The position numbers were made by a program, and so were the translations under genes. A model generated the notes under the pieces. That model was not told where the DNA came from and did no database searches. It saw only the letters and a list, made by a program, of their open reading frames with translations. A stretch of 64,000 nucleotides of DNA from Bacillota bacterium (lineage in GTDB: Bacteria; Bacillota; Clostridia; Christensenellales; UBA3700), in assembly GCA_023396095.1 (NCBI GenBank), contig JAEWXG010000012.1:97718-161717 (forward strand), read 5' to 3'. Below are positions 8,459-57,693 of the stretch, piece by piece (within the stretch, counting starts at the first letter, position 1; each line of letters begins with the position of its first letter).

Positions 8459-8662
8459 TTTTGAGATGTTCTCTTTCGTTACATTATATCGTAAAATGGT
8501 AGCGAAAACAAGAGATTTAACGGATTTTAGTTTCATTTAATTACTAGTCGTTAAAACAAGTTTCACCCAATTAATTGTTTAACGGTTAATAGTTGCTTGA
8601 TTCTAAATTGGGTAAGTCCTTAAATCTCTTGAATTCAAACATTATTAATGGAGGAAAACAAA

Positions 8663-11511: not shown

Positions 11512-11778
11512 TTATTGATGCCTCTTCCCTCTAGAATATATTTTCTAGGGGGTAGGCCCCATTCTATCTCTGGGACTAAATTATAGGACATCGGCCTGGG
11601 GTTTCACGCGCAACTTCGCGAAATCAAAGAGGGTATATCCCCCTATTCGTTAAAACACTATTTCTGATTTTCAAAGTCCTAAATTTGCCGTTATTTCGCT
11701 ACAATTTGAAATACCTATAATTAGCCGTAGAGGTCTTAATAACTTGAAATAATCGCACATAAGGAGGTTTAACGGGAA

Positions 11779-12162: not shown

Positions 12163-12366
12163 TAATCTTATTGTTTATAACATAAGCATAACAATTCTTG
12201 AGGCACTACATAAAAATGGTGTTTTAAATGATGAAGATTTCATAGATTCTTCTTCTTTAGTTGCAGCTAATCATGGGCTTAAAAATACCTCAATTTTCGT
12301 ATCAAATTAACTTGATATAAATCCCCTTTAGAGTGATATATATGTATGACCAAAAGGAGGATTATC

Positions 12367-12570
12367 ATGGATAATTTAAAGCAACAATTATTTAAACTTT
12401 GTGAAGAACACAAAACCAGTACTGAGGGGATTAATTACTTAATCAAATATTATATTAATTCCCTCGGCTGGACTGAGGAGGAAGCCATTAAATATGCAAT
12501 AAAACTATTTGATAATGGCACCATTGATGAAATAAAAATTATAGGAGGTAACGATGGACAGGATAATTAA
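12367..12570 (+). CDS. small hypothetical protein (67 aa)
   Basis: ATG 12367 lies 6 nt after AGGAGG. It overlaps the first recombinase start by 17 nt, which suggests coupling. Confidence 0.45.
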   Translation: MDNLKQQLFKLCEEHKTSTEGINYLIKYYINSLGWTEEEAIKYAIKLFDNGTIDEIKIIGGNDGQDN

Positions 12571-30877: not shown

Positions 30878-32053
30878 TTACTTTAATTGCGACAAATCTG
30901 TTCCTGCTGGTGGCTTTCTCTTATCTGAAAATTGTTTACCAAATTTGTTCAAATATTCTTTTTTCCAAATTTTTGTTTCTTCTTGATTTGTTACTGGATT
31001 AATGATTTTTTGTTTTGGCAAATATGATACTTGAACGTTTGAAACTAAAGAAGCTTGTGCTTTAATAGCCCCCAAATCCAACCCGTATGATTCAACATAG
31101 TCTATTTGCCTAATAAAACCATTGTCCCAAACTTCTATAAACATATCTAGCCCTTTATAATCAATCGTTCCGGACTGGCCGCCTAATTCTAACATATCTT
31201 TCATGTTAGCTAAATATTTCCCTTCCCAAGCGCCAGGCAAAAATGATACTTCTATAACGTGAACTTTTGGAACTGCGCCTGCTTTAATTTGTTCTTGAAG
31301 TTGTTTGTAGCTTTCTTCTCTATCTTTTCTGAAAGGCTGTGATTCTAAAAAATCACTTGATGTAAAATCAACATTTGATTGAATATCAATTAGGCTAATC
31401 GTTTCTTCATTCACAACATATCCTAGTATATTATTAGGATCGTCATTAGAGTAATTACTAAAACCTTCAAAATTATTTGCTTTCTTCTCTTGCCATTTAC
31501 CTGACAAATTATAAAATTGGGAAGTATTAGGATCTAACTTTATATTAGATGCATCAACAGCTTGTCTATATATATATCCACCATCTGTTTTTCTCAACAC
31601 TTCAACCATTAATCTAATATCTACCCCAGCAACACCTTTGGAAGTTACTGAATAACTAGAAAAGTAATTTAATGATTGTTCTAAACCTTCATTGCCAGCA
31701 TCTGCTGCCCCTTCTTTCTTCCCTCTTTCAGATAATCTCACCGTCATAACAGATTGAATAACCGTCATTCCTAATGTAACTGTACTTACATCACCAGTTT
31801 GACGATAATATGTAAACGGAGCATATTGCATATTCTTCCAAATATTTGCTAAATGCGCTTTTGAATTCTCCTTATTCTCCCAATCTATTTCGTATTTAGG
31901 AGTTAGCAACTCTTGCGTCTTATAATTTATAGGCGTTGATATTATAGTCGCCTGTGGCTTAAGCTCTAACCCACCTCCGCAAGATGCAAAAGAGGCCACC
32001 ATTAATGATAATATTAAAACTAAAGATATAATCGTTATTTTCTTTGTCTTCAT
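30878..32053 (-). CDS. orphan lipoprotein (391 aa), translationally adjacent to the giant gene
   Basis: Signal peptide plus lipobox SFASC. The ATG lies 3 nt after the giant-gene stop, and the AGGAGG RBS sits inside the giant gene's last codons. No family recognised. Confidence 0.6.
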   Translation of the reverse strand: MKTKKITIISLVLILSLMVASFASCGGGLELKPQATIISTPINYKTQELLTPKYEIDWENKENSKAHLANIWKNMQYAPFTYYRQTGDVSTVTLGMTVIQSVMTVRLSERGKKEGAADAGNEGLEQSLNYFSSYSVTSKGVAGVDIRLMVEVLRKTDGGYIYRQAVDASNIKLDPNTSQFYNLSGKWQEKKANNFEGFSNYSNDDPNNILGYVVNEETISLIDIQSNVDFTSSDFLESQPFRKDREESYKQLQEQIKAGAVPKVHVIEVSFLPGAWEGKYLANMKDMLELGGQSGTIDYKGLDMFIEVWDNGFIRQIDYVESYGLDLGAIKAQASLVSNVQVSYLPKQKIINPVTNQEETKIWKKEYLNKFGKQFSDKRKPPAGTDLSQLK

Positions 32054-32056
32054 ACT

Positions 32057-35000
32057 TTACTGGGCCTCCTTATTATTAGTATTAGCCTTTTTTATTTTCT
32101 TTGTTTTTATCCTAACCATAATACCTAATCCTATTACCGCGATGGATATAATCGACACGAAAGTCATCAATAACTTAACAGATTGTGGAGCTAATGCTTT
32201 TGGATTATTTATGATTACCAAAGCAGCGTTTTTATCACCCTCTATGCCATTAGCTAACACTTTCCCATCACTATCAACAAACACTAGTTCATATTTTGTT
32301 GTATCAACAGATAAAGTCCCTAATGAATACCTATATTCACCTTTCTTTTCTCCTGGTTTTCTTACTAATTGTCCACTAAATACATCTGAATTTAATTCAA
32401 TTTCAAACCATCCTTGTTCATATAATTCATCCAATTTAGCTTCATCTTCTTCCTCTATAGCTTTTAAAACATCATTGCCTAGGAATATTAATTCAAGCGG
32501 ATCAACTTCTGGATCATCTTGAGAAATATATTTAGACATCTTAGCTTTAAAGTGCAATCTAATAATTGTTTTGCGAATATCCATTTCCCCAGGGTATTGA
32601 TTTGTTTCATCAACATCTATCTCGTAATTATCCGACTCACTATCAGTCAATGTAATCATTTGCATTCCAACATCTTCTTTCCAATAATACTTTAACCCTA
32701 GCGCACTGATAGTATCCTTATATGGTACTACTTTAATCTCATCACCAAACGCTTCATACTCATTCCATTCTACAAGCCCGCCACCAACAAATGTAATAGG
32801 TATTTTATCAGTATCTATATCTTGTCCATAATATTTAAGCATTCTTCCAATTCTAATCTTAATTGCTTTTTTGGAAACTGATATATTTACTTCTGCTTTA
32901 TTCCCCTTAACAATTTCAAATGGCTCATTAGCAAGTAATGTTTTATTGATATCAACTGTAACAACATGGGTTCCTGCTCCTAAATTGTTGATTCTTAAAG
33001 CGTTTATATATACATTTCCTTCCCCGTCTCTTTGATATGCAGAAGGCACATTCAAATCAACCTTTATTCCATTAATTGTTAATTTGAACACTTTGAATAA
33101 CTTATCATACGCTAAGTATTCATCAAATATTCTGCCTTTATCTTTATCAGATAAAATCAATATATCTTCTAAACTAATAACCTCATTTGAATATGTTGTT
33201 GCAACATCTTTATAATCTAAATATACCTTTCTCTTTACAACAGAAATATACCAAGGAGATTCTTGAGTCTTATTAACGAAGATAAAATTCTTTTTAATAA
33301 CATCTTCTTGTTCTGGAGTTAATGTTACATTACTTTTTAATATAATTGTCGATAAATCAAGTTCAGCAGGATATTGCATTCCATATTGCAACTTTGATAA
33401 ATCACTTGACCCATTAACCAAAACTTTAGGGATAACCTCAAAATATTTATCGTAATATCCTTCAATTTGATAAGATGGTTGTTTTGATAAATATGGTAAC
33501 TTGATAACTCTATCCTCAGGTAAAACTACTGATATATTTATAGTTTTAGGCATAATAGTAAACTTTAATTGTTCTGGAACAGTATCTCCATTCCAATCTA
33601 CTCCTTGTTTCAACTCTGTAGAAAATTTAATATCAAAATTTGCCGTAATATTTTCATCGCCATATTTTAACGCAAATGAAGAAATTTGATATCCATCAAG
33701 ATCTTCTCCTGATTTTTTAACAACATAATTTCCTAAAACATCTTTTTCCCAAGCATCTAATCCCCAATCGTATACAGGTGTTAATTCAATCGCCCCAAAT
33801 ATTTCTTGCTTGTTAGATAAATATGTATCAACTGCCACTAAATTGTCACTATACTCACTCATTAAAACACGCGTATCACCAGTTGAAGTCCTTGAAACAG
33901 CATATAAATTCAATTGGCCTTTAACAATATTAGCTTTAATTTTAAGTGTGCTCACATCAAAATTATCACCATTGTTTACTTGCGCAGCTTTATCAACATT
34001 CAATTTTGTATTGACAACCAAATTATCACCTAAAGTCATAAACTTTACAGCACCTTTATTCGTAACTTGCAATCTGAGTTGACCGCTAGTGCCATCATTT
34101 AATGTGGCAAAATTAGGATTGCTTTCATTTTTGAACACAAACACACTAACAGCCCCTAATCTGCTCGTTATAAATTTTTCCTTAGCATCATATTTTGACT
34201 TAAAGGTTATCAAATCATTCCCAGATAATAATCTAATCTTTTCTTCATCAAAATCATCTTCTGCCCATCCATTATTTGCAAATTCGTAATTAGCAAGACT
34301 TTTCATCCTTAAAATATATCTATTAAAAGTATAGTCACCAACTTTAAATGTTGTAAGAGCGTTAATAAAATCTTGCTTAGTATTGTAACTTGTTAAGTAA
34401 TATGAAGTTTCATTAATCCCTAGTAAATCCTTCAATTCGACATCTTTCTCGTCTATAAAAGTTAATTTACCTTTATCAAACTTAATGGTTCCTGGTAAAG
34501 TTGTGATTGCAAGCCTAGTACCATCCGAATTAAATGAGTTTTTAAACAATTCAAAACTCATACTATATGCTAATAGTTTATTTAATTCGTTCGTTCTATA
34601 TGTTCCTGTCCCGTCAGTCATAGAAAAATTAAAATAACCATTGCTTTTTTCTTTAATTATTCTCGCAAAAGTATTTGTTCCTTCTGGATAAGTCATAGTA
34701 GAATCCCATGTTGTCCAGTCAATGTTTACATCACTAAAAGAATCGAATCCTTTTTCTTCTGTTCCAATGATTGTAAAATATTGTTTTATATTAGCTATGT
34801 CTGCAGACGCTCCATTTATCTTTGTGATATTTTCTAATGCTTGATCTTTCCCAGACTCCACTTTTCTAAACCCATTAATTGTGTTTCTATAAAATATATC
34901 TATTGAATCAGCGGCATAACCAGTTCCTACTAATTGATTCCATTTTGTAGCTTTTGGAGCCGTAAACTCCACATCTGCTTGCACAATTTTATTTATTGGA

Positions 35001-38000
35001 TTTACTGATTCATCAGCATCTTTCGAAACAATAAACGGAGAAGAACTATCATTATTAAAAGTAAACTTAATGCTTATTTTTCCATTATCTGTATTTCTAA
35101 AAACATAATAGTATTTTCCTTCCTCATATTCATTTTTTATAGCAGACATTAATTGGAATTGAACAGTACATTTGATTATATTTTTTAATTGCTCATATGT
35201 TAACACTTCTTCACCGTTCTTGAACTCATCGCTTTGAAGAATTGTATTAATACTATTTATTCTATCATCAGCATTATCTCCAGAAACTGAACTATTACCT
35301 ATTTTAGTAATCCACATTGCTAACTTATTGTCATTTATTGTTCCCAATATTTTGCTCTCTAAATCGTCCGCATCAAATCTCATTAAAGTTGTTACATCAG
35401 ATGCCTTTAATTGTTTTGTGAATATCGGGTCACTACTATATAAATCAGATAATGTTTTAGTATCTGCTTTAAATGATATAGGGATTTGCTTTTTAGTTCC
35501 CCCAGCTTTTGACATTGATTGTTCGCTTACAAAAGAATTCAATTCATTTACACCGCTAGCATAATTAATCCCACTCATTGGTTGAGAATAGATAGCATTC
35601 ATTGTAAATACTCTATTCGTTGCCACAGCATAACCAGCACCACTCATGGATTGAGATAAAGATTGATTGAGTGATGAGTATTTTTTAACATCATAAGGAG
35701 GATATAGATCCAACTTCAATGTTTCTAATAATTTAAATTCACCAATTTCAGCTGTTTCTTTATCATTTAAAGTTGCTGATGCCGTTACTATAACATTCTT
35801 TAAGTGGATTCTCACTGGTCTATATGGAGGAACATACAACCCAAGTATTACATTCTCAACAATATCAGTACCTATTGTGTTTGTTAAACCTGGAGTTACT
35901 ATACTCCCATCATCAAGATATTCAACATCAATATTTTCAATCGTGACTCTTAAAGGTAAGAATGCACTACCACTAAATTTGTAATCTGATCCGTATGGAT
36001 CACCAATAAACTGAATTTTGTTTGCTAATGCTTTTTTAGATTGTAATTTAACAATTAATCCAGCATTCCATTTTGAAGGATCATTATACGAGAATTGACC
36101 ACCGCTAATTTCAGTTTTTGTAATTTCTTTTAAATAATCTCTCAATCCTTGAATAATTTTTTCCTCATCTAAACTTATCGCACTTAATGTGTATGGTATT
36201 TCTAACATTACATTTTTAACTATTCCATTACCATATGTTAATGAGAATTTTCCATTCTTCAAGTTTGACGATTCATCAAAGTAATCATTTATCTTTTGTG
36301 GAATCATAGATATATCAAAATTGAATTTTGTTGAAGCACCTTGTGCACTAAAGACATATAGTTTCTTTGTAGCGCCACCAATTTCAACTTCAGTTTTACC
36401 GTCTACTAACTCATTATTACCATTAACCATTTGTATTCCAATATCTGTAATACTTGCGATGTATGGATTAATAACAAGCTTTCTTTGACCTGGTAAAATG
36501 TTTTGGAATTTACTATAATCAAACACCTCCCAAACTTCATTAATTTTTACATAAACTTCAAACTTTCCGTCTTTGATATTTGCCTTTCTTACAGCATTCT
36601 TTCCTAATTTAATTTTTACAGTGGAATTTGTTGACACCTCAACATCTGTAACATATGGTTTGTATACCAAGTAATTATTATTTGCTTCAGTAGTTTCTTG
36701 AGTTGGGTCTAATACAATAGCTCCTTGTGACTCATCTTGAACCCACGCAATATCCATTTTATGAGATGTATGACCATATGAACTATACTTGTTTTGTATC
36801 GTTGCTGTTGTAGTTTGAGGTAAATTCATATCCGCCATAGTTTTTGAAATCGCTGTAGCCGAATAAATATCACTCTCTATTGTCCCTTCCGGATTTAAAA
36901 CTGAAATTTGAGTGGCAGATGTAACCTTATCAATTTTTATTCCTCCGTTATTATCAAGTAAAACTTCAATTGTTTCCTCATTACCACCACCACTAGCAGA
37001 TGTTGTTATCTTTATTTGAATAGCTCTAAATATCTTAGAAGAACCTGACGTTGGCTTTTCTAATAAAACTTTTGCATACGCCTCTTCTACAACTCTTCCG
37101 TTTTGCACGCTTGGCAATGGGAATACTGCTTTTACTAATTTTACAACCGCTGGAAGAATATTTTCTACTTGATTAGAAAATTGCATTGCACTTCCATTTA
37201 AGGAAGTAATCATAGAAAGAACAAAAGCAGAAATAGTATTTACAACCATTTTTGAATCATCTCCACCTGCTGCGACAGGATAACCCATTAATTTAAACAA
37301 ACTTCCATTTGCAAAATTAATTAGTTCTGTTACAAATGTTGGCACCAAATTAACAACTATAGAAGTATCGTTAGCTGATCCTATAACACTATTATCCGCA
37401 AATTTAATTATTTGAGGATCTTTAGCATTAATTTGTATAGATTTTATGATTTTACTAATATCAACTTTACCGTCTTCATTCTTAACATTTGGTGGGGTAG
37501 CCTTCTTTTTCTTTAAAACTATTGTTAGCTTCTTTAAATCTTGGTTGCCTTCAACCCAATCGTAAATGGTCAAGAATCCAATATTATTAGCATTGTAACT
37601 AGAACCACCACTAATTGACTGTACATTATTTTGCAACCATTCTTTAGTTATAACTGTACCGTTTTGTAAATAATATGTTCTACTTCCTTCTTTATGGTAC
37701 CCAATATATTTTCCTTCTTTGTCCCAAAATGCAAGATACATATCTTTATTGTGCGATGCTTGCCATTGTCCACCTTCAATAGTAATTTTTTCTAACTGAG
37801 AAATAGGTATCATTTTTGTGTAATGATAGTTATACCCTGACCACAAGAATCGTAATAAATTACCATCATCTCCAATAGCTAATTGCGAATTTATCCCATG
37901 CCCTGGAGAATATGTATATTTTTCAAACTCGCCTTGATCCTCAATTATTGGATCGTCCGGCGTCGTTGTTACCTCTTCTTGCGGATTAAATGCTGCACCT

Positions 38001-41000
38001 AATTTATCTCTAAGCATTGGTCCTAATCCTATTCTTAACCCAGTTATAATAGGCATCAATCCACTAACTACGCCCGTCGTCCCAGGTAAACTATTAATCT
38101 TAATAATTATTTGATCAACAGAAAGATATGCATTTACATCAGAGCCATCAGGGCCATTTATTACAACTTTTATTCCGGATTTAACACTTCCTTGTGCTCC
38201 TACTGTCCTTGTAAATTCTGTATTATCTCTTTTTGCTTTTACGAATAATGATCTCTTGCTTGTGTCGCCGTTATATGATGAGTTATTTGTAATACTCAAA
38301 TTCAAGAAATCAGCTCCATCCGCACCCGTAATTAGTTGTATAACGTTAAATATTAATGCTCTTAAATTTGTCTTATCTTTTGCTATAGCAAGTGCTTTTA
38401 AATCTCCCATTGATAATGCAGCGTATTCACCAGCTTCTGCTTGAGTTGGAATAATATCATTAATATTAGTATAAATTCCATTATTGCCGATAAACTCTCT
38501 AAATTTAAAATTCTTTGCTTCTAATTTTATGTATCCTTTAGATGGAACAGTTGTTTGGTTAGAATTTGCAAAATCTTCAGTATTATAAATTCTTCCGCCG
38601 TCCTTTTTGTTTTCCAAATCGATAACTAGTTTTACAAAATCAATTCCACTTTCAAGTGTTGTTCCGTTCAACTCAGTTTTAACAGCAAACGCCAACATTA
38701 TATCGTTGAAACTAAAGTTATTTAAATATTCAAGCAATTTATTTTGCGCATCAAGAACTTTTTGATTTTCTGGATCATTGAATTGTTGTGTTCCTGGATT
38801 ATAATCAGCACTATTTGCAACTAATAAATCGTTAATCTTTTTATATGCTATTCTCTCAATAAACTTTTTGATGAATGTATCATTAATTTTTACAACAACT
38901 TTAGTGCGAATTCCAGAAACTGCTCCAGATGCATTGTTAATTAACTCTGATCTAATATCTAACTCTGTTCTAATCTTGTTATAATCCGCTATTTCTTCTG
39001 GAGTAGCACCAGACATAGCCATCCTTGTGATAAAGCTTGCATTTTCTGGGAATAAAGTTGGTCCCATGATAGCCAACAAATTAATACCAGTCATTTTTAT
39101 CTTCATTAATCCAAGTTTTTCTAAATCAATATATATTGCATTGTCTTTTGCTATATATGTTATAGCCATTATGACTTGCTCATTATCTTTAACTACCAAT
39201 TTAACTCCAGAATTATTCTTAAATGCTGTAGGACTATCAAAATCTAAAATAGCTCTTGCTTCAAGTTTAAAATTATATTCCTTTCCTTCATTTATGATAA
39301 ATCCAGACTCATAATTTGTAGTCTTTAATAATTCTTTATCAAGAATTTCAAATAGCTTCTTTATAATTGAGTTACTATCATTTGTAAGCTTAATATCTAA
39401 AGTCGCATCAAATCCTAAATCGATTTTTCTAATCGGCAAATTGGCAGCAAAAGGCGCTCCATTTACAATCGACATGAGTTTATCAAACGATAATGATGAA
39501 AATTTAGATAATTTGTTATCTTCAATTTCTTGGATTGGATCTTGATCATAGAATGTTGCATACTCAGGCTTCTTAGCATTACAACTATCTATTACCTTAA
39601 ATGCGGTTCCAGGCCTATTGTTTAAGAATGCTGTTAATTCTACAGTCATGACTCCTGTCTCATTTTTAACACCCTGTTCAACTACAATTTTAATTTCAGC
39701 TTTTCCAGATTCTCCTCCAGTTTGAGAATTGTTTGGACGAACATATTTTAAAGCTATTTCACTCATTGTCGGAATAGCATCCTTTATATATCCAAACATT
39801 TCTTTTTTGTCTTGTGCAGCTTTTTTATCTGCCTCTGAGACTGCGTTATTAACATCTTCTATAAGTTTATTTTCTATAACTTCTAAAATAAGGGATATTA
39901 CTGAAGAATTAATTGAAAGATCAATGCCTTCTTGAAGAACCGATACTCTCAACACAGCTTGTCCAGCTCCTTTAGTTTCATCCTTTGCCATCTTCTGCGC
40001 ACTTGTTGCTTTTGCAGAAGTTGACATTTCAGCTAACGATTCAATAAATTGTTGTACCTTTAAATTCCCCTTAATTAATCCTAATAAATCAAAGTTTTCA
40101 AGCTTAACTCCTGATATACCTAATATTGGGAATTCAACAGCTAACATCTTATCTTCTTGGCTATATAGTATATTTAACACTGTTCTTTGTTCAACTGTAT
40201 TGGTTTCAGAATTTGCTGAATCTTCAACAACTAATAACTGAATTTTTAATTTACTATTATTGACTGAAGTTGTAGTGAATATTTCTGATAGTGGGATATC
40301 GGCATTTAAATATCCTCTAAAGATAGTTTCTACTCCTTCATCAGTTTTTGAATATACCCCTGATACACTGGAGATATCATTTGTAGTGTTTAATTTATTC
40401 ATAACCTTGAATAAACTGCTAACATTAGTATATGCGGAATCTTCCTGTAACGCTTGAATATCTTCTTGAGTATATCCTTTACCTAGAGAATTAAATACAA
40501 GCGCTAACAACCCGCCAATATCCATAAATGGCTTTCCTTCTGATTTAAATTTTATTTCTGTCTCCGCCCTCAATTTTAATGCAAGAGAATGATAAGGTAT
40601 ATATTCATCTTCGTTTATATCAAAGTGAACTGTTTGCCCAATAATAGATGTGTCTCCTACATAGTATAACCCCAATTTGGTTTCTACTTGCTCTTCATCT
40701 ACAAATCCAGGAACTCTACCAATTACTACATCCATACCAAAATCGCCACCGGCATATGTCACACCATCTGGAGTAGTAAAACCACCCAATGTTCTCTCAA
40801 ATCCTAAATGTATTCCTGAAACATCAAAGCCATATCCATAATTAATTGTTGTTTTATATAAATCAAGATAAATTCTTGTAAAATCATCTAATCCCGATTC
40901 TAACTTCATTAAGCTTCTAAACAACGCAGAAAGCATGTTTGGCTCTAACTCAATGTGCGTATAATCATCATTCTCAGTATCCACTTCTTTAATGTATCCT

Positions 41001-44000
41001 AGAATCTTTAATAATTTATCTATTCCATTAGACTGGCTACTTGTATTTGATGATGATTGAGACGCATTAGACTGCGCTGCGCTCACTTCTTTTTGATCAA
41101 TAGCAGACTGAATTGCTCCTTTTATAATTGTTAAAAGATCCAAATCAGTAATCTTAAACTTAGGCATATTAAATGCGGATAGATCTATTAATATATCGTT
41201 TAAGTTAGTGTATATGATTATTGGGCTTTCATAACCAGACACATCAATAATAAGCATCACTTTGCTTTTATAATTTCTTGCAGAAACTTGATCGAAAATA
41301 TCTCCAAAGTTTACTCTTGCCTTCACACTTATTTTAACGTGTTTTGGATTATCGGAGAAACCTGACCCCATTTTTATTTCTGTTTTTAATCTTGACAAAA
41401 TAGACATAGGGGAATCAGCCTCAAAAGCTAAATTAGGGCTGAATAAATATTCAGGACTCTTTAAATACAGATTTATAGATGTAGATAAATCTAAATTCAA
41501 GTCTTTTGCTGGTTTTAGGTTGGCAATCATTTGATTGTCATATATACCTTCTCTTAATGTTCTATCAACATTAATCGCAATACCGCCAACGGATACACTT
41601 ATTCCAAAACCTGGTTCTTGCGTTCCCACCTTATTAAATTCTAAGCCAAGCTCAATATTCAATGGAAAAGCCAAATTTGCAGTAGCCTTTACGCAATTTA
41701 ACTCTGCCCCTGGATTTTGTTCTTCAAATTCTCTAATTGCATCTCCTAAGAACGCTGCAGATGCGGCTCTATTTGCAATTTCAAGTAAAAGACCTTGAAT
41801 ATTCATATAAGTCGTTGCGACACTCAATGTTTGTCCATTATTTAGTGCTTTCCTCAATGACTCAATCTGCACTCTAATTTTTTCAGCCGCTTCAGCTGTT
41901 AAAGTTCCTGAATTTAAACTTTCTTCTAAAGCCCGTATGCTATCACTATACTTAGCACGCGTTGATTTATCAACAATATTAATAGTAGCAATATTGGATG
42001 TAATTTTATCAAGTAAGCTTATTACTTCATCAGCAGTCATCTTTGTTTCATTTGTCTCATTACCTGTTGTGCTGCTATTTGTGTTTCCACCTATTACAAG
42101 TTCATCATTATTTAATGCAGTTAATTTTGCTTTGTTAGATTTTACAACTGCACTATTAATAGTACTTATCAAATCTAATCCAAGATTATCAAAATTCAAG
42201 AAAATATCTTCTCCACTTAAGAAGTTAAAATCTACTAAATCTCCATCTTTATTACGAACTTTTGTATCAGGATCACTACCTCTAAAGATTAATCCTTGAT
42301 GTGGTACTTTAATAATTTGTCCGTTAGACATTTCATTAACATAAATATTTGAGTCATAGATTAAACCAAATAATCTCTTAAACTCTCCTCTATCTTTCTT
42401 CTTCAAAGTTAAACCTAATGATGCATAAGAAAGTTGGAAATTTGTACTTAATTTTGCTTTTTCTTGAGCTTTCAAATATTCATAAGTTCCTGGTACTTCA
42501 ACAATTTCCTTCTTAGCAATATCTAACCTTTCAAAATATCTAAATATATCTTGTATATTTATTCTCGCTGAAATTTCTAGAGCATATTTATCATCAAGTG
42601 AAACACTGTCATTAACTTTATTGCCAATAAATTTTAACAATTCAGTTTTGATTTTGTTCATATTTTCTTCAGTGATATTCACACCATCAATGTATTTAAG
42701 TATTGTCGCTAATAAATTAATCGTAGGGTTCCATTCAATATTTGATAAACTACCTGAAACACCAAGTCCAAGTTGTACCTTAAACGATACATATTGTGGA
42801 TTCAAAGAAGTTAATGATATATTAGTTGCATTTTGTGTAGGAACTAACTCGCCACCAATTTTTTGAATTGATATGAATAAATTATATAACTCAAGTTTAC
42901 CTCTTATTGAATCTGTATATTGCCCGTCTTTAATACCTGTTATACCAACATAAACTCCCCAAGTAGTATCATTTGATTTTTGCTCAACATCTAAGCCTAT
43001 TGTATTAACAAATCTATAAAGAGCAATACCATTCAAATCCACACCAAAAATTTGTAATAATCCTTGAATAAGTATTGATTTTATTCTAAATGATAATTTA
43101 CCATTAATTAATTCAACGAATGTTGAAACTGTTGGTTGTTGTTCATCAACTGAAGCACCTCTATTAAGCAATTTCGTTATTAACTCTAATGCGATACTTT
43201 CTGTATTATTGGAAGAAGTATAATAAACTCCTCCATCACTTTCTTCGTAGTATTTCTTGCTCAAAATATCAACAATTAGTGGTACTATTTTCTTTGGAGC
43301 TCCATTAATCTTTAAACCGTTTTCTTCAATACCCAACAAAGATGATTGAATAAAGATAAAATCACCAATAGATGGTCCCTCATAGTAAACAACTAGTAAG
43401 TTATTTGTATAGTGCGTTATAGGATTTTCAATTCTAATAGCAATTTTTATTTTTGCACCATTAAGCAAGGCTTCTATTATTCCTTTTACTAACGCATTTT
43501 TTAATTTTTCCTTAACAGCTGGATTTTTCAACTCTTCTAGAGAATATTCCGATTTCTTGATTTCATTAAAAATTTTGTTAGCAATTTTTGATAATGGGAT
43601 ATCAATCATAAAATCCAACACTAATTTTTCATCTTTATCCATTGAGAAATTAGAGTTTAGATTTGGAATATTAAGACCAAAGTTTTCCATCACTTCCTTT
43701 AGTGCACTGGAAACAATTTCCCCCGGATTAGTAGTATCAACATTTAATGCAAGAGTTGCTCCAATTCTCATATTGTTAGCCCCAGACTTTAGAATATCTG
43801 GATAACTTGATAATCTACCATTTAGGAATTGCATTCCTAAGAATCTTTCTTCACCAAGTTGATTTATAGGTAACATCTTATCTATACGCGCTTTCTTATT
43901 AGGATCATCATCACTTATGTTACTAAAGTCAAGCCCAGCACCCACATAAGGGATGCCTATGTCGACTTGGAAAAGAGTTTTTTCGTCATTCTTAACTTCT

Positions 44001-47000
44001 GCATTAAGATTTATTCCAACCAATCCTCCCTCTTTAGGGAATAAGTTAACACCTAAAGCAAGGATTACATCGATACCAACATCAGTATCTTCAATCCCTA
44101 CAGCCTCCATTATTACTCTTAAAACTTCAGCAGATGTAACAATGGCTATACCTTGTTGCCCTATTCTTACTGCAGATAATAAGCCTAAAATGTTCTGTCC
44201 CTGCATTAAGCCTTTTAAATTATTTAAAAGTGGAGTCAAGTAATCTTTGAAGGCAGTTAAAACATTTGTAGCAACTGACTCTTCTCCATCTGCTTTAGCC
44301 ATAGCAGCATTGCCAGATAATGAGTTACTCGAGTCAGATTTTGGAGCTAAGAATAATCTCTCAAAAGCTGTCCAATTATCTCCAGATAAATTAATCATCA
44401 ACTTTGAGTCATTTACAGTCTGCCCTTCCAATTGCAAGTTGGTATAAAGTCTACCATATACTTTCAAATTGTCCCCATCAATATATAATGTCAACATTCT
44501 ATCTGGCATCGTTTGATTTTCTGAAATACTAAACTGTAAACTTATTGCAATATTTAAAGAAGAAATAACATCTTTTAATCCATCTGATTTTGCTTTTGCC
44601 ACAACCACTGGATCAACATTTTTAGTCTGCATCTTTTTTACGCCTGATAATAATTTAGAAATGTTAACTCTTCCTGTGATGTACATATTAAATATTAATT
44701 CTCTTCCTGGACTATCAAGATGTAAATATCCGCTTAAATTACTAAATATCTTCTTTGTCTCTTCATTTATAACATCTGGATTAGCATTTTGTATTAATTC
44801 TTCTAATTTATCATATAGTTGTTGATAACTGTGATGTAAGAAATCATCACCATTTGTATTTCCTAAAATGAAATTAGTTCTCAATGCTAAATTAACCGCA
44901 ACATACTTTCCTTTGGTCCCGCCACTTGTTTCATAATCATTAACAATTTTGTCTAGATTAAATTCTGTTACTAACTCATCAATTGATGTATATTTATCTT
45001 TTTCACTATCTGGTACATAATTTGTAGATTCAGCCGTTGAAACTGCAATATGCAAATCAGATATTGATAATAATATCTTCATCCCACCTGTTTGATTTAC
45101 TGTATCACTAAACAATATATCAGTTAACGCCAAGTTAATGCCAATTCCGGTTGTTGAATAACTCATCCCAAATGAAATTTTTGCTTTTGGCAAACTCTCT
45201 TCATTAATAACCACAGGATTACCATTACTGTCTTTTACTCCAGCAAGTGCTGTTTTTAAAATCACACCTAGAGCAGTATTTGCTAATGTAATTTGGAATT
45301 CTCTACTTGTAAAACTAATACCACCAATCACTCCTAAAATCATTGATGCCGCATCAATTTTTGCTTTTTCTTTTTTCTTTTCCTCTGTGTTAGTTATATT
45401 CCCAGCATTCTCTTGTCCTGCAATTTCTCCGCTTGCATCATTTACGATTTCTTTATTGCTAGATTTTTCCTTAGCACCAAGAGTTTTAAGTTTTTCATTA
45501 ATCAATTGAACCAAATTTACATTTTGTTTTAAATCTGGTAACGTTGTATCGCCAAAATCAATATATAGCGTTCCATCTCCATTAATATTTCCATTGTTTT
45601 GAATAACTTCTGAATCATACATTAATGTCAAGAATGGCTTTCCATCATATCTATCCCATTCTGGATTATCTCTCCATTGAGTTCCGGAAATAACAGCATT
45701 TATACTCTTCGAGATATCTATTTGAATTTTTGCGTTAATTTGTTTTAATAATTTTTCTGGACTAACTTTTGAGAATAAAACCTTCAAACCTGCAAAACTT
45801 GCTAAATTTTTAAACGCCTCTTCTGTTACTCCAAAATCTTCTAAAGCATTTATTCTCGCAGAAAGTTCTATCGAAATTTGTATTGCTAAATCGAATCCTT
45901 CCGTTGCAGTTATATCTAAACTAAAATCATGGTTAGGCTTGCCCTTGAAAAAAACATCTTCACTTTTTTCTAATTTGTCCTTTAATTCTGGGCTAAGATT
46001 CTTTAAAAATTGAATTAGTTCTAAATTTCCTGCTTGTCCACTTTGTACAAGAAGCCTTATCTTTGTAGAAACTATTACTTTTTTCAATTCAGTTAATTTC
46101 AAGAATTCGCCATTATCACGAGCTGTCTTAACAATGTCCATTCTTGCTTTGTAATCTTCACCAGGGTAGAAAAATAGTTGTAATTTTTCTATTCCCAAAC
46201 TTACTCTAGTATTTGCAGGCTGACTTTCATCATCATCTTGGAATGCTACAGATATTTGCAATTTACCAGCAATATTACTCCAGCTTTCTAATTGTTCCTC
46301 ACCTTGAACACCTTGAACCCCAACTGAAAGTCTAATATCCTTAATTGAATTGTCTATTAAGTTATTAATTAAACCTAACATCAATCCAGTTGTTCCATTA
46401 TTATCTTTTGATAAATTTTTAATGCTTCTTAAAACGCCTGATAAGTTTTCTTGAGATAATACTAAATTAAGCATACCTCCATCAATTGAACTATCATTAA
46501 CTATGGCTGCAATATAATCTAATAACTTAAGATCACCATTAGGACCCATTGCCATAGATTGTATCGCTTGTAACTTATTAGCTTCATTAAAGATTACTTG
46601 TTTATCTTTACCATCATTTAGAATCATTAGTTTTAAATTCTTAACACTGGCTGAATTCTGATTATTAAGTGATGCTTGTACATCTTCCTTAGTAACATCT
46701 TGATTACCACTATTTTTCTTTTCAGCAACCATCCCCATTATAAAGCCAATTAAACCTTTTGATGATAAATCCCTTAAGAATGAAGACATTTTTTGCAAGA
46801 ATGGATTATAAATTAAGCTCTTTAAATCTATACTTCCTATCATAACTTTTGGCATACCGATTCCGGATAAATCCAATAGAACATCGCTATAGCCTACAGA
46901 AGTACTTGGTAATAAATATACTCCTATTAAAACTAAATTATTATCTGATGTATCAGTAAGTTCAACTGAAAGTGTACTCTTGTGAATATTAGCATTTAAT

Positions 47001-48703
47001 CTAATATCACTTCTAATTTTTAATTTAAAGCCATGAACCCCAGCAGAAATAGTAAATGTCTTGTCGGACAAATTTTGTATTAGATACTTAAAAGTATTTG
47101 TAGTTTTATATTGATTATACGCACTCTTTAAAGTTTCTTGTTCTACAGAAACTAATATACTACTTAATTTTGTTGTATATAGTTTTTCAATTGCTTCAAC
47201 CGAAAGATTTTTGCCTTCTTCAGCAACTCCCAACATTGCATAGAATTTATTATTTAAATTATCAATGCTACCTACATTCTCAGCAATCTTATTGTGTAAT
47301 AATTCTTTTTTCCTCTCTTCTGTTGCCAAATTATATGATCTCAATTCATTGGCATCAAAAAGCATTAACTCTGCAAGAGTAATAGTTCTATCTTCTTTTG
47401 TTTGCAAATCAATTGCTAGTTGCAAATCAAGTTTTCCAAAATTAAATTCATTTCCATTATCAATTAACTCTTCAACATTATTGAATGCTGTTTCAATATC
47501 TTCCGGGAAGGAAATTTGAATGTCAGCAGCGTTTAAAGAATCTTCGATAAAAAATCTCGTATTAGACGTTCTAAATTCCAATTGTGTTTTTTCTGAAGAT
47601 TCTTCACCTAAATATTTATCAAACACGGCTTTTTGTCTTGATTTACCAATCGATTCTATACTTCCATCTTTTGCTAAAACAAAGTAGAAGTTAGAATTAT
47701 TTAGTGTTACAGGATAATGCTTTAAATCTTCTATAGTCAAACCTTTTGGAGGCTGGTTATTTTTCTCATCATATTTTTTAATAAATGCGTTTACAAGAGT
47801 ATTTATACTTCCTATTTCATCTAGTTTATCTCCTAAAAGATTTTCAACTAGTTGAGGAACTTTAGCTATAACAGGAAGCATTGCATTAACAAATTTACCC
47901 AAATTAAATCCCATATCATATCTTGTTAACTCTGGGTTATCTGGAACTTGTGACACCTTAACTTCTGTATTGAAAATAATCGGGAAAATAACTGGTCCTA
48001 TAAACTCTAACAATTTGATAGAATTTCCATCAACATTCAAAGTAATATCCCCTGACAATATATCAGAGGCAATTTTTCTAAAATACTCATCAAATCCATA
48101 GCGGCTAAAATAATAATAAATCTTATTAAGTTGAACATCTGAAATATATAGAGGCTTTAATGTGCTACCAGCACCATTAAATATTTTGAACAATAATTTT
48201 CCTTCTTTATAGTAAAATCCAAAAACACGTTGGTCAGGATCTAAAGATTTTGTTGAAAAGACTTCAATTGAAACTTCATTTTTGTCTGCTGTTAAATCAT
48301 TCGGGTTGCTTGCATCTAATTCAAGTGAGGCTGTTGTTATTATTCGGGTTTGAGTAGTTTCTCCATTCTTATCTTCTTGAATTATGGTTTCAACTTTTTG
48401 GTTCAGTTTGTTGTTCCCATTTTTCATAAAGTTTTCAACAACTGGCCCTTGTGAAATTTTTAAACCATTAAGCAATTTCTTAAAAGCATCATATGGCTTA
48501 ATCGAATTAGCATCGATTGATTGCTTACTTTTATCAGCTGTTACATTTCCAGTAATCTCAACACCTTCTCCTAACAAAGATTTGTAAATTTCATTAGGGT
48601 CTGTTGACGCCTGTTTTTTGTTGCAAGCTGTCAATACAAACACTGACATTAAAACAACTAATAGAATTGATATTGCTACGAAAATTTTAGATTTTTGTCT
48701 CAT
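32057..48703 (-). CDS. giant surface protein (5,548 aa): N-terminal lipoprotein signal, ~10 cryptic large modules, beta-rich/MBG-like C-terminal third, C-terminal TM anchor
   Basis: A single uninterrupted ORF. Start set at ATG 48703 after a GGGGAGG RBS (MRQKSKIFVAISILLVVLMSVFVLTAC). C-terminus: LLMTFVSIISIAVIGLGIMV-RIKTKKIKK. MBG-like segments are SKKAIKIRIGRMLKYYGQD and LVRKPGEKKGEYRYSLGTLSVDTTKYELVF. Confidence 0.85.
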   Translation of the reverse strand: MRQKSKIFVAISILLVVLMSVFVLTACNKKQASTDPNEIYKSLLGEGVEITGNVTADKSKQSIDANSIKPYDAFKKLLNGLKISQGPVVENFMKNGNNKLNQKVETIIQEDKNGETTQTRIITTASLELDASNPNDLTADKNEVSIEVFSTKSLDPDQRVFGFYYKEGKLLFKIFNGAGSTLKPLYISDVQLNKIYYYFSRYGFDEYFRKIASDILSGDITLNVDGNSIKLLEFIGPVIFPIIFNTEVKVSQVPDNPELTRYDMGFNLGKFVNAMLPVIAKVPQLVENLLGDKLDEIGSINTLVNAFIKKYDEKNNQPPKGLTIEDLKHYPVTLNNSNFYFVLAKDGSIESIGKSRQKAVFDKYLGEESSEKTQLEFRTSNTRFFIEDSLNAADIQISFPEDIETAFNNVEELIDNGNEFNFGKLDLQLAIDLQTKEDRTITLAELMLFDANELRSYNLATEERKKELLHNKIAENVGSIDNLNNKFYAMLGVAEEGKNLSVEAIEKLYTTKLSSILVSVEQETLKSAYNQYKTTNTFKYLIQNLSDKTFTISAGVHGFKLKIRSDIRLNANIHKSTLSVELTDTSDNNLVLIGVYLLPSTSVGYSDVLLDLSGIGMPKVMIGSIDLKSLIYNPFLQKMSSFLRDLSSKGLIGFIMGMVAEKKNSGNQDVTKEDVQASLNNQNSASVKNLKLMILNDGKDKQVIFNEANKLQAIQSMAMGPNGDLKLLDYIAAIVNDSSIDGGMLNLVLSQENLSGVLRSIKNLSKDNNGTTGLMLGLINNLIDNSIKDIRLSVGVQGVQGEEQLESWSNIAGKLQISVAFQDDDESQPANTRVSLGIEKLQLFFYPGEDYKARMDIVKTARDNGEFLKLTELKKVIVSTKIRLLVQSGQAGNLELIQFLKNLSPELKDKLEKSEDVFFKGKPNHDFSLDITATEGFDLAIQISIELSARINALEDFGVTEEAFKNLASFAGLKVLFSKVSPEKLLKQINAKIQIDISKSINAVISGTQWRDNPEWDRYDGKPFLTLMYDSEVIQNNGNINGDGTLYIDFGDTTLPDLKQNVNLVQLINEKLKTLGAKEKSSNKEIVNDASGEIAGQENAGNITNTEEKKKEKAKIDAASMILGVIGGISFTSREFQITLANTALGVILKTALAGVKDSNGNPVVINEESLPKAKISFGMSYSTTGIGINLALTDILFSDTVNQTGGMKILLSISDLHIAVSTAESTNYVPDSEKDKYTSIDELVTEFNLDKIVNDYETSGGTKGKYVAVNLALRTNFILGNTNGDDFLHHSYQQLYDKLEELIQNANPDVINEETKKIFSNLSGYLHLDSPGRELIFNMYITGRVNISKLLSGVKKMQTKNVDPVVVAKAKSDGLKDVISSLNIAISLQFSISENQTMPDRMLTLYIDGDNLKVYGRLYTNLQLEGQTVNDSKLMINLSGDNWTAFERLFLAPKSDSSNSLSGNAAMAKADGEESVATNVLTAFKDYLTPLLNNLKGLMQGQNILGLLSAVRIGQQGIAIVTSAEVLRVIMEAVGIEDTDVGIDVILALGVNLFPKEGGLVGINLNAEVKNDEKTLFQVDIGIPYVGAGLDFSNISDDDPNKKARIDKMLPINQLGEERFLGMQFLNGRLSSYPDILKSGANNMRIGATLALNVDTTNPGEIVSSALKEVMENFGLNIPNLNSNFSMDKDEKLVLDFMIDIPLSKIANKIFNEIKKSEYSLEELKNPAVKEKLKNALVKGIIEALLNGAKIKIAIRIENPITHYTNNLLVVYYEGPSIGDFIFIQSSLLGIEENGLKINGAPKKIVPLIVDILSKKYYEESDGGVYYTSSNNTESIALELITKLLNRGASVDEQQPTVSTFVELINGKLSFRIKSILIQGLLQIFGVDLNGIALYRFVNTIGLDVEQKSNDTTWGVYVGITGIKDGQYTDSIRGKLELYNLFISIQKIGGELVPTQNATNISLTSLNPQYVSFKVQLGLGVSGSLSNIEWNPTINLLATILKYIDGVNITEENMNKIKTELLKFIGNKVNDSVSLDDKYALEISARINIQDIFRYFERLDIAKKEIVEVPGTYEYLKAQEKAKLSTNFQLSYASLGLTLKKKDRGEFKRLFGLIYDSNIYVNEMSNGQIIKVPHQGLIFRGSDPDTKVRNKDGDLVDFNFLSGEDIFLNFDNLGLDLISTINSAVVKSNKAKLTALNNDELVIGGNTNSSTTGNETNETKMTADEVISLLDKITSNIATINIVDKSTRAKYSDSIRALEESLNSGTLTAEAAEKIRVQIESLRKALNNGQTLSVATTYMNIQGLLLEIANRAASAAFLGDAIREFEEQNPGAELNCVKATANLAFPLNIELGLEFNKVGTQEPGFGISVSVGGIAINVDRTLREGIYDNQMIANLKPAKDLNLDLSTSINLYLKSPEYLFSPNLAFEADSPMSILSRLKTEIKMGSGFSDNPKHVKISVKARVNFGDIFDQVSARNYKSKVMLIIDVSGYESPIIIYTNLNDILIDLSAFNMPKFKITDLDLLTIIKGAIQSAIDQKEVSAAQSNASQSSSNTSSQSNGIDKLLKILGYIKEVDTENDDYTHIELEPNMLSALFRSLMKLESGLDDFTRIYLDLYKTTINYGYGFDVSGIHLGFERTLGGFTTPDGVTYAGGDFGMDVVIGRVPGFVDEEQVETKLGLYYVGDTSIIGQTVHFDINEDEYIPYHSLALKLRAETEIKFKSEGKPFMDIGGLLALVFNSLGKGYTQEDIQALQEDSAYTNVSSLFKVMNKLNTTNDISSVSGVYSKTDEGVETIFRGYLNADIPLSEIFTTTSVNNSKLKIQLLVVEDSANSETNTVEQRTVLNILYSQEDKMLAVEFPILGISGVKLENFDLLGLIKGNLKVQQFIESLAEMSTSAKATSAQKMAKDETKGAGQAVLRVSVLQEGIDLSINSSVISLILEVIENKLIEDVNNAVSEADKKAAQDKKEMFGYIKDAIPTMSEIALKYVRPNNSQTGGESGKAEIKIVVEQGVKNETGVMTVELTAFLNNRPGTAFKVIDSCNAKKPEYATFYDQDPIQEIEDNKLSKFSSLSFDKLMSIVNGAPFAANLPIRKIDLGFDATLDIKLTNDSNSIIKKLFEILDKELLKTTNYESGFIINEGKEYNFKLEARAILDFDSPTAFKNNSGVKLVVKDNEQVIMAITYIAKDNAIYIDLEKLGLMKIKMTGINLLAIMGPTLFPENASFITRMAMSGATPEEIADYNKIRTELDIRSELINNASGAVSGIRTKVVVKINDTFIKKFIERIAYKKINDLLVANSADYNPGTQQFNDPENQKVLDAQNKLLEYLNNFSFNDIMLAFAVKTELNGTTLESGIDFVKLVIDLENKKDGGRIYNTEDFANSNQTTVPSKGYIKLEAKNFKFREFIGNNGIYTNINDIIPTQAEAGEYAALSMGDLKALAIAKDKTNLRALIFNVIQLITGADGADFLNLSITNNSSYNGDTSKRSLFVKAKRDNTEFTRTVGAQGSVKSGIKVVINGPDGSDVNAYLSVDQIIIKINSLPGTTGVVSGLMPIITGLRIGLGPMLRDKLGAAFNPQEEVTTTPDDPIIEDQGEFEKYTYSPGHGINSQLAIGDDGNLLRFLWSGYNYHYTKMIPISQLEKITIEGGQWQASHNKDMYLAFWDKEGKYIGYHKEGSRTYYLQNGTVITKEWLQNNVQSISGGSSYNANNIGFLTIYDWVEGNQDLKKLTIVLKKKKATPPNVKNEDGKVDISKIIKSIQINAKDPQIIKFADNSVIGSANDTSIVVNLVPTFVTELINFANGSLFKLMGYPVAAGGDDSKMVVNTISAFVLSMITSLNGSAMQFSNQVENILPAVVKLVKAVFPLPSVQNGRVVEEAYAKVLLEKPTSGSSKIFRAIQIKITTSASGGGNEETIEVLLDNNGGIKIDKVTSATQISVLNPEGTIESDIYSATAISKTMADMNLPQTTTATIQNKYSSYGHTSHKMDIAWVQDESQGAIVLDPTQETTEANNNYLVYKPYVTDVEVSTNSTVKIKLGKNAVRKANIKDGKFEVYVKINEVWEVFDYSKFQNILPGQRKLVINPYIASITDIGIQMVNGNNELVDGKTEVEIGGATKKLYVFSAQGASTKFNFDISMIPQKINDYFDESSNLKNGKFSLTYGNGIVKNVMLEIPYTLSAISLDEEKIIQGLRDYLKEITKTEISGGQFSYNDPSKWNAGLIVKLQSKKALANKIQFIGDPYGSDYKFSGSAFLPLRVTIENIDVEYLDDGSIVTPGLTNTIGTDIVENVILGLYVPPYRPVRIHLKNVIVTASATLNDKETAEIGEFKLLETLKLDLYPPYDVKKYSSLNQSLSQSMSGAGYAVATNRVFTMNAIYSQPMSGINYASGVNELNSFVSEQSMSKAGGTKKQIPISFKADTKTLSDLYSSDPIFTKQLKASDVTTLMRFDADDLESKILGTINDNKLAMWITKIGNSSVSGDNADDRINSINTILQSDEFKNGEEVLTYEQLKNIIKCTVQFQLMSAIKNEYEEGKYYYVFRNTDNGKISIKFTFNNDSSSPFIVSKDADESVNPINKIVQADVEFTAPKATKWNQLVGTGYAADSIDIFYRNTINGFRKVESGKDQALENITKINGASADIANIKQYFTIIGTEEKGFDSFSDVNIDWTTWDSTMTYPEGTNTFARIIKEKSNGYFNFSMTDGTGTYRTNELNKLLAYSMSFELFKNSFNSDGTRLAITTLPGTIKFDKGKLTFIDEKDVELKDLLGINETSYYLTSYNTKQDFINALTTFKVGDYTFNRYILRMKSLANYEFANNGWAEDDFDEEKIRLLSGNDLITFKSKYDAKEKFITSRLGAVSVFVFKNESNPNFATLNDGTSGQLRLQVTNKGAVKFMTLGDNLVVNTKLNVDKAAQVNNGDNFDVSTLKIKANIVKGQLNLYAVSRTSTGDTRVLMSEYSDNLVAVDTYLSNKQEIFGAIELTPVYDWGLDAWEKDVLGNYVVKKSGEDLDGYQISSFALKYGDENITANFDIKFSTELKQGVDWNGDTVPEQLKFTIMPKTINISVVLPEDRVIKLPYLSKQPSYQIEGYYDKYFEVIPKVLVNGSSDLSKLQYGMQYPAELDLSTIILKSNVTLTPEQEDVIKKNFIFVNKTQESPWYISVVKRKVYLDYKDVATTYSNEVISLEDILILSDKDKGRIFDEYLAYDKLFKVFKLTINGIKVDLNVPSAYQRDGEGNVYINALRINNLGAGTHVVTVDINKTLLANEPFEIVKGNKAEVNISVSKKAIKIRIGRMLKYYGQDIDTDKIPITFVGGGLVEWNEYEAFGDEIKVVPYKDTISALGLKYYWKEDVGMQMITLTDSESDNYEIDVDETNQYPGEMDIRKTIIRLHFKAKMSKYISQDDPEVDPLELIFLGNDVLKAIEEEDEAKLDELYEQGWFEIELNSDVFSGQLVRKPGEKKGEYRYSLGTLSVDTTKYELVFVDSDGKVLANGIEGDKNAALVIINNPKALAPQSVKLLMTFVSIISIAVIGLGIMVRIKTKKIKKANTNNKEAQ

Positions 48704-48747
48704 AATAGCCTCCCCGAAAGACATTAACCTTAATTAATATGTATATA

Positions 48748-48922: not shown

Positions 48923-49747
48923 TTAAGCATAAAAAGCTTTTGCTAGAATACCAATTTTAACATTCTCGTTGACTATAACAAATTTCCCGTTTTCTATTTT
49001 CCCATAATCGTCTATAATATCAATTTTAAATGCAATTTTGGCAAATAGATACTTTTGAGGAGTTCCTCTCGGATTCCCATTGTCATCAACAAATTGAAGT
49101 TCAACATAATTTCCTTGTATCCTATATGTACCTAATAATTTATCATAAACATCTTCATTGGTTGTATTTTTAGCAAATACTTTTCCTTGCTCAAAAAGTG
49201 CGACATTTGAACTAGAATTCCCCGAAGGAATAACATAATATCCCTCAATAGTAGTTAAACTTTCATTGCTTTTTTGTATTCTAATTGCAGTTATATGCTC
49301 ATTTTTAATTAGATAGTTTTCGAATTTTGTAATCTCTGTATAATTTTCTTGCAAAGATTTTGCTAATGCCTGCAATGCAGATTTAATCGCAGGATTGTTT
49401 TCTTTCTCAATCAAATTGTTTATATTTTTTAAGTTATTATTTAGAATGGATGCATCATATGTCATGTACAATACATTGTTTTTCTTGTCATAATTATAGT
49501 TCCCATGATTTACTGAACCACTCTCCTGACTATAAATTTCTTGAAATCTTTTTTCGTTTTCAAACTTGATATACATATTAGATTTTTCAAACATCTGCTG
49601 AGAATCATTAAAGGTGTATAAAAAGTACTTATGTCTTATCCTTAAATTAATTGTTGAACACGACAAAAAAGTCGCTACAACAAATATGGCAACAAAAAAA
49701 ACACATATGAGCCTCATCGTTGCAGAATTTTTTATTTTTTCTTTCAT
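48923..49747 (-). CDS. orphan lipoprotein (274 aa) upstream of the giant gene
   Basis: Hydrophobic signal followed by FLSC (a relaxed lipobox). No recognisable family and no clear RBS. Confidence 0.55.
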   Translation of the reverse strand: MKEKIKNSATMRLICVFFVAIFVVATFLSCSTINLRIRHKYFLYTFNDSQQMFEKSNMYIKFENEKRFQEIYSQESGSVNHGNYNYDKKNNVLYMTYDASILNNNLKNINNLIEKENNPAIKSALQALAKSLQENYTEITKFENYLIKNEHITAIRIQKSNESLTTIEGYYVIPSGNSSSNVALFEQGKVFAKNTTNEDVYDKLLGTYRIQGNYVELQFVDDNGNPRGTPQKYLFAKIAFKIDIIDDYGKIENGKFVIVNENVKIGILAKAFYA

Positions 49748-57653: not shown

Positions 57654-57693
57654 AATTGCCTCCCAAATCAATACAACACGTTATATATAAAAC

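Follow-up and report, generated by a model that had tools for sequence, protein, structure and literature searches.

We analysed a 64,000-nucleotide stretch of DNA (the window) from a Bacillota bacterium (GTDB lineage Bacteria; Bacillota; Clostridia; Christensenellales; UBA3700), taken from contig JAEWXG010000012.1 of NCBI GenBank assembly GCA_023396095.1 (positions 97,718 to 161,717 of the forward strand), whose G+C content is ~30% throughout. Its minus strand carries a giant open reading frame (ORF) of 5,555 codons, known from the ORF list and its translation, and the region 38010-48215 singled out by a first-pass annotation lies entirely within this ORF and makes up its N-terminal 64%. A short motif, here called the anchor, recurs in this part of the protein beyond chance, and we consider below whether the N-terminal two thirds may form a jointed chain of related modules on the cell surface.

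The first ATG of the giant ORF (48724) has no ribosome-binding site. Because GGAGG stands 5 nt ahead of the second ATG at 48703 on the minus strand, and because the database protein P0001, identical to the giant protein, begins at this same ATG, the second ATG (Met8) is probably the true start, with a product of 5,548 amino acids (aa); all residue numbers given here nevertheless refer to the 5,555-aa version. From this start the protein opens with a positively charged N-region and a hydrophobic core with a hydropathy peak of 2.98, followed within the first ~35 residues by a lipobox of the form [LVI][ASTVI][GAS]C (MRQKSKIFVAISILLVVLMSVFVLTAC). Near the other end lies a hydrophobic helix, and these two segments are the only transmembrane-like ones in the protein.

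An exhaustive HMMER search with aa 2190-3300 against 1.84 billion representative sequences (standing for ~15 billion proteins) returned the protein itself and a single relative, P0002. P0002 (5,510 aa, ~33% identical) is collinear with the giant protein from the lipobox, retained there as VLFAC, to the transmembrane helix, and it likewise has transmembrane-like segments only at its two ends. Of a third lineage only a C-terminal fragment of 312 aa is known, making this a near-orphan family of two full-length lineages and one fragment. Samples SRR30067327 and SRR30895312 contain fragments of two further lineages. The features of the giant gene, with the modules numbered M0 to M9 from the N-terminus, are as follows.

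32057..48724, minus strand: giant ORF, 5,555 codons
48623..48703, minus strand: lipoprotein signal peptide, read from the sequence, with MRQKSK, hydrophobic core and lipobox L-T-A-C (Cys34)
48119..48622, minus strand: M0, aa 35-202, short head unit with a truncated anchor (PLYISDVQLNKIYYY), placed by eye and conserved in P0002
46802..48118, minus strand: M1, aa 203-641, strong anchor
45485..46801, minus strand: M2, aa 642-1080, strong anchor; first-strand motif at aa 947-965
45359..45478, minus strand: example of a hydrophilic linker, aa 1083-1122, rich in S, N, T, E and K
44330..45484, minus strand: M3, aa 1081-1465, weak anchor, not significant; first-strand motif at aa 1344-1360 (44645-44695); linker after its end
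43250..44329, minus strand: M4, aa 1466-1825, weak anchor; placed by spacing and visual alignment
42125..43249, minus strand: M5, aa 1826-2200, weak anchor; first-strand motif at aa 2046-2062 (42539-42589); linker after its end
41105..42124, minus strand: M6, aa 2201-2540, strong anchor; conserved unit at aa 2461-2543
40049..41104, minus strand: M7, aa 2541-2892, strong anchor; conserved unit at aa 2800-2893
39038..40048, minus strand: M8, aa 2893-3229, strong anchor; conserved unit at aa 3150-3229; modelled with AlphaFold
38009..39037, minus strand: M9, aa 3230-3572, weak anchor; linked to M8 by a single weak profile match
32195..38008, minus strand: C-terminal non-modular region, aa 3573-5510, beta-rich, with a sub-threshold match to MBG (YGX type) near its end
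32108..32176, minus strand: C-terminal transmembrane helix, aa 5517-5539, hydropathy 2.53, followed by the basic tail KTKKIKK

The first-pass annotation had proposed that about ten modules are each closed by the same anchor, and all ten peptides that it quoted were found where it had placed them, on the minus strand. Five of the proposed anchors are strong (aa 615-641, 1049-1080, 2502-2540, 2852-2892 and 3185-3229). A pattern written from these five matches the protein 5 times, whereas 500 shuffled versions gave a mean of 0.012 matches, a frequency in no way comparable to chance, and the same pattern finds 4 matches at orthologous sites in P0002, a sequence that was not used to write it. When anchor hidden Markov models (HMMs) were built from four of the anchors, the omitted fifth was in all five cases the top non-seed match within the whole 5,555-aa protein, and in four of the five its score exceeded that of each of the 50 shuffles. 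An ungapped two-sequence profile dot-plot placed all six pairs among anchors 1, 6, 7 and 8 within its top ten diagonals, although single diagonals overlap the range of the shuffles, while protein self-BLAST gave a marginal result (best score 28.9 bits versus a shuffle maximum of 24.6) whose top matches still join proposed anchors. All five strong anchors are also conserved in P0002, at 33% identity overall. The recurrence of the five strong anchors is thus real and exceeds chance.

The similarity around the strong anchors reaches ~60 residues further upstream and defines a unit of 80-94 aa. Within an alignment of the 90 residues up to and including each anchor (five modules from each of two orthologs) the unit runs from a first strand of the form F-K-L-x-h-x-A-R-h-N-h-x-D-I-F through two more strands, the second of which ends in h-h-h-Y, to the anchor itself, whose consensus is h-Y-I-D-L, a turn G-h-P-K-h-K and a short helix h-D-L-L-x-h-I. 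The first-strand motif, instances of which include KYALEISARINIQDIF, HVKISVKARVNFGDIF and IFRGYLNADIPLSEIF, behaves similarly to the anchor when one module at a time is left out: it was the top non-seed match at the expected place for six of the nine modules (M1, M2, M3, M5, M6 and M7), and it exceeded all 40 shuffles in M5 (6.1 bits for the left-out copy), M6 and M7. Forced alignment alone does not yield such recoveries, since a central strand block that looks equally neat in the MAFFT alignment was recovered in none of the nine.

Profile comparisons link the same modules to one another. Using two-row module alignments, hhalign joined M6 to M8 (E 1.4e-4, 69 columns), M1 to M6 (E 6e-4), M6 to M7 (E 8e-3) and M7 to M8 (E 1.6e-2, 133 columns), and it aligned M8 with M9 over 159 columns in register within the N-terminal halves of both modules (E 0.0024, at a probability of 12%). 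A core profile of M6-M8 picked up M1 with an E of 7.6e-5, M5 with an E of 3e-3 at the first-strand motif and the anchor of M2 in register with an E of 0.057, while the controls, reversed modules and pieces of the C-terminal region, scored no more than 18. Taken together, these tests recover the end unit with statistical support in five modules (M1, M2, M6, M7 and M8); M3 and M5 are partly supported by the first-strand motif and a linker, while M4 and M0 are placed by spacing and inspection only. The proposal that the modules are ancient duplications diverged beyond similarity at the DNA level is accordingly supported for part of the array: for the five modules sharing the unit, in part for M3 and M5, and for M9 through its match to M8. 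At the nucleotide level Tandem Repeats Finder and a repeat finder returned only short matches near chance level, bearing out the absence of DNA repetition that had been noted at first. The only DNA-level hint of a repeat is a 23-nt match of 91% identity between 42557-42579 and 45848-45870, which encodes EISARIN in M5 and ELSARIN in M2 within the first-strand motif; ~0.2 such matches are expected by chance.

The linkers give an independent view of the module borders. A hydrophobicity scan of the whole protein minus its extreme C-terminal tail found six 24-aa windows with at most 13% hydrophobic residues, and these follow the module ends at 641, 1080, 1465, 2200, 2540 and 2892, two of which (1465 and 2200) are weak anchors. 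The linkers, which are presumably flexible, start 3-35 residues past the end of the anchor, with window centres 6-49 residues past it. An S/N/T/E-rich linker had been claimed after each anchor; it is present after these six ends and not after every one. Two further elements of the proposed module did not survive leave-one-out recovery: the strand-plus-helix segment behind the linker, though aligned by eye in M3, M4, M5, M8 and M9, was not recovered, and the mid-module strand pairs, with KLDLQLAIDLQ and LAFPLNIELGLEF among them, were recovered in 0 of nine. Insertions and deletions that separate the two orthologs show no concentration at the borders of the modules. Since the tests establish five anchors and lend indirect support to a further two module ends, the claim of about ten modules with the same closing anchor is overstated for the remainder of the array.

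Structure prediction gave AlphaFold models with a mean predicted local distance difference test score (pLDDT) of 32 for aa 2201-3300 with a two-row alignment, and of 53 for M8 with 18 aligned rows made up of paralogous modules and their orthologs. In the second model the N-terminal beta-hairpin and two long helices of M8 have a pLDDT of 60-89 and the mid-module falls below 50, while the C-terminal unit is predicted as five strands and a short helix with a pLDDT of 55-81. Adding the paralogous modules to the alignment raised the pLDDT of this end unit from ~45 to 75-81. The order of elements is the same for M7, taken from the first model, and for M8, taken from the second: strand(s), helices, three strands, strand, helices, five strands, helix. 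The predicted secondary structure is mixed, with many helices of 10-35 residues, and at this low model confidence a module appears to be a mixed alpha/beta domain. Foldseek searches against PDB and BFVD returned nothing meaningful (best E 0.05-0.17, template modelling score ≤0.19).

The earlier suggestion of a long beta-solenoid or groove-like fold is not supported here. A beta-solenoid would be all-beta with coils of ~18-30 aa, whereas this protein lacks any short periodicity, its period is 337-439 aa and the models, low in confidence as they are, contain many helices. Nor is a continuous groove apparent as far as these models show, in keeping with the six linkers and with the lack of an AsmA, TamB or Chorein match.

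Sequence searches beyond the HMMER run found no known family in the modular part. Neither Pfam nor NCBIfam gave a significant match to aa 1-3575, and Pfam applied to each of 18 module sequences (E up to 10) gave no recurrent family; AsmA, AsmA_2, TamB (DUF490), DUF748, Chorein_N, SMP and other lipid-transfer families were absent from the Pfam and NCBIfam matches to both aa 1-3575 and the 18 modules. A word-indexed homology search with aa 2201-3230 and scans of JGI metagenomes gave no match, species-representative genomes gave one spurious match only, and PDB sequence searches with both protein halves and a module profile gave none. The 18-row module profile found no match in a collection of 5.8 billion clusters, within the limits of its word filter. 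Literature searches likewise turned up nothing relevant.

The region that follows the modules (aa 3573-5510) showed no similarity to them in control comparisons. Pfam MBG_2 matches the last ~100 putatively extracellular residues with 20.5 bits (E 7.6e-4), a match carried by a G-E-Y-x-Y...Y-E-L-x-F motif ahead of the transmembrane helix. At the opposite end of the protein, the stretch EFIGPVIFPIIF (47969-48010, aa 239-252) is near-invariant between both orthologs and is the most hydrophobic internal stretch, with a hydropathy of up to 1.66 in P0002; it is too short for a transmembrane helix and could be buried in the core or form a patch that touches the membrane close to the lipid anchor.

We propose, with a probability of roughly 55%, that the N-terminal two thirds of this giant surface protein form a jointed chain of modules that serves as an adhesin-like stalk or coat and is tethered at both ends, a reading drawn from sequence features. 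The protein would be exported by its lipoprotein signal peptide and lipid-anchored through its N-terminal cysteine, while its C-terminal end would be held by the single transmembrane helix with its basic cytoplasmic tail. Because the lipobox-bearing signal and the C-terminal helix are the only hydrophobic segments, we infer that the whole chain between them is extracellular and tethered at both ends. Residues 35-3572 would then comprise a short head unit followed by nine modules, each 337-439 residues long. In this view about ten alpha/beta domains are strung into a jointed chain; the modules would have arisen by old tandem duplication and are now ~15% identical, the best-kept part of each being the last 80-94 residues with their strands and anchor. 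The most likely role of the chain is that of a long stalk with joints, or of a coat element, in a surface structure resembling an adhesin. The C-terminal 1,900 residues, beta-rich and free of repeats, would adjoin the membrane anchor, and the conserved, co-translated 391-aa lipoprotein encoded downstream is a probable partner. The recurring motif, the linkers, the conservation and the anchoring signals are observed directly, whereas the tethering at both ends and the role as stalk or adhesin are our interpretation. The synteny of the partner lipoprotein in three lineages and a second large surface protein encoded 4 kb away fit this reading. In line with what a giant tandem-repeat adhesin would possess, the protein has an export signal, tandem homologous domains (at least five homologous end units) and a C-terminal anchor.

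Several results weigh against this proposal. Above the level of shuffles, no anchor HMM recovers a single weak anchor (the five lie near aa 202, 1465, 1825, 2200 and 3572), and HMMs of whole modules, tested by leave-one-out, beat every shuffle only for M6, M7 (both orthologs) and M8 (the copy in the window). Homology among the front ~250 residues of the modules cannot be demonstrated from sequence. M4 is without statistical support in any test, M9 has its one weak profile match only, and M0 offers a weak dot-plot diagonal (172/607) without statistical support. With mean pLDDT values of 32 and 53, the two AlphaFold models are too poor to establish either the domain fold or the stalk picture. 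The conservation analysis is thin, as it draws on one diverged relative only. Finally, known adhesin domains (Ig-like, FIVAR, GA, Rib, MucBP and others) gave no family match, and the MBG domain (YGX type, PF18676) stays below its gathering cut-off of 25 and is confined to the C-terminal region.

If the modules are not homologous over their whole length, then only the 80-94-aa unit might be repeated, five to seven times, between unrelated spacers of similar length. This account is unlikely but is a serious contender, as the end unit alone is recoverable by leave-one-out while the whole-module HMMs for most modules and the two other aligned blocks fail. It leaves unexplained, however, the regular spacing of 337-439 aa, the in-register match between the N-terminal halves of M8 and M9 and the common order of secondary-structure elements in M7 and M8, and in M8 the pLDDT of the N-terminal hairpin and helices rose to 60-89 with the paralogue alignment. 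To the notion that the anchors recur by chance, or through the composition of a long protein rich in I, L, K and N, we give next to no credence. The self-BLAST score barely over the shuffle maximum and the overlap of single dot-plot diagonals with the shuffles would suit it, but for the strong anchors it is effectively refuted by the shuffle counts of the pattern, the five-out-of-five leave-one-out recoveries, the six dot-plot pairs of four anchors, the conservation of the anchors in the diverged ortholog and the position of every hydrophilic linker just past an anchor.

Alternatively, the modules might be units that bind lipids or other hydrophobic ligands, either TULIP-like or as a segmented bridge-like groove, and shuttle or hold lipids at the surface. 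Such a role is suggested by numerous strands in which polar and non-polar residues alternate strictly, by amphipathic helices and by the predicted tethering to the membrane at both ends, as well as by a nearby gene for the fatty-acid-binding protein DegV, which is on the other strand and separated from the giant gene by another ORF. Alternating strands suit any two-layer alpha/beta domain equally, however, and the DegV gene, read the other way, is a commonplace housekeeping neighbour; hydrophilic linkers after six module ends speak against a continuous groove, and neither the lipid-transfer families named above nor Foldseek provided a match. We therefore regard a lipid-binding function as improbable.

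In its general plan, the jointed surface chain that we favour most closely resembles staphylococcal Ebh, which combines an export signal, a rod of tandem modules and a C-terminal transmembrane helix with a positive tail, and which has no LPXTG sortase signal. Shared with Ebh are the very large size, the low-GC host, the export signal, the module array and the helix with its basic tail. The repeats of Ebh (FIVAR-GA, ~126 aa) are all-helical, highly alike and detectable by Pfam, whereas the modules described here are three times larger (337-439 aa), mixed alpha/beta, ~15% identical and without a family; unlike Ebh, the giant protein also has a lipobox and would thus be anchored at both ends. Bridge-like lipid-transfer proteins (AsmA/TamB/YhdP) are likewise long and contain many amphipathic strands, and the end unit superficially looks like one beta-groove unit. 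The giant protein differs from them in the missing family match, the long helices inside its modules, the linkers after six module ends and the combination of a lipoprotein signal with a C-terminal helix in place of an N-terminal transmembrane anchor. A likeness to the MBG (YGX-type) surface proteins of Firmicutes comes from the C-terminal sub-threshold match and from a 1,729-aa neighbour that has similar G-x-Y motifs by eye; the match scores 20.5, less than the cut-off of 25, and it falls outside the modules.

Giant orphan surface proteins are not rare in metagenome-derived low-GC bacteria. Here the big modular surface protein is the familiar part, the double anchoring is unusual and the domain itself is new. 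We see an outside chance that the module is a new fold, repeated ten times between the lipid anchor and the transmembrane helix, and that the protein is a new envelope structure in place of wall-anchored adhesins, such as a surface tether in the form of a loop, or a chain of segments that handles lipid or other hydrophobic cargo, working with the partner lipoprotein. With ~3,500 residues that match nothing in Pfam, NCBIfam or PDB and have one diverged relative, the protein represents a sizeable piece of uncharted protein space, and the domain boundaries from the repeat analysis make a single 340-aa module expressible and solvable. A new fold, if confirmed, would add a building block for bacterial surface fibres, and tethering at both ends, if true, would be an unusual way of mounting a protein of ~0.6 MDa on the membrane, though neither bears on a long-standing open question.

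The giant gene is directly followed by the gene of its probable partner.

30878..32053, minus strand: co-encoded lipoprotein, 391 aa, lipobox SFASC, starting 3 nt past the stop of the giant gene

This lipoprotein is 42% identical to the product of the gene at the same position after P0002, and a relative 80% identical to it also follows the fragment of the giant gene in the third lineage, so that its position is kept in all three known lineages. It matches two other protein clusters only and has no Pfam match. A stray copy of a module was considered as its origin and rejected (hhalign E 0.65). Upstream of the giant gene lies another predicted lipoprotein (48923-49747, minus strand, 274 aa, lipobox FLSC), which also has no Pfam match; because the truncated ORF upstream of P0002 is unrelated to it, this gene stands outside the conserved pair.

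The 1,729-aa protein mentioned above is a second large surface protein, encoded 4 kb away (52482-57671, minus strand). It has a signal peptide, the G-x-Y motifs and, towards its C-terminus, a transmembrane helix; behind this helix comes a repeat tail rich in acidic residues and proline (EEPVAEDAVDEEPVAEDAVD...), which would lie in the cytoplasm. As far as could be seen, the sequence of this protein is unrelated to the modules.

The remainder of the neighbourhood is ordinary chromosome, with genes for an amino-acid ABC transporter, DegV, a PP-loop ATPase, OGG, RNase G and MreB and with a shikimate operon. The region 6166-15437, which encodes a Fic-domain protein, a DUF3987 (primase/helicase-like) protein and two adjacent large serine recombinases, is likely an integrated mobile element, and the sign of the GC skew flips across ~8-16 kb. 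Within the shikimate operon a 502-aa ORF (16576-18084, minus strand) fuses chorismate mutase, the N-domain of shikimate dehydrogenase and shikimate kinase; the operon also holds the genes for chorismate synthase, EPSP synthase, DHQ synthase and DAHP synthase.

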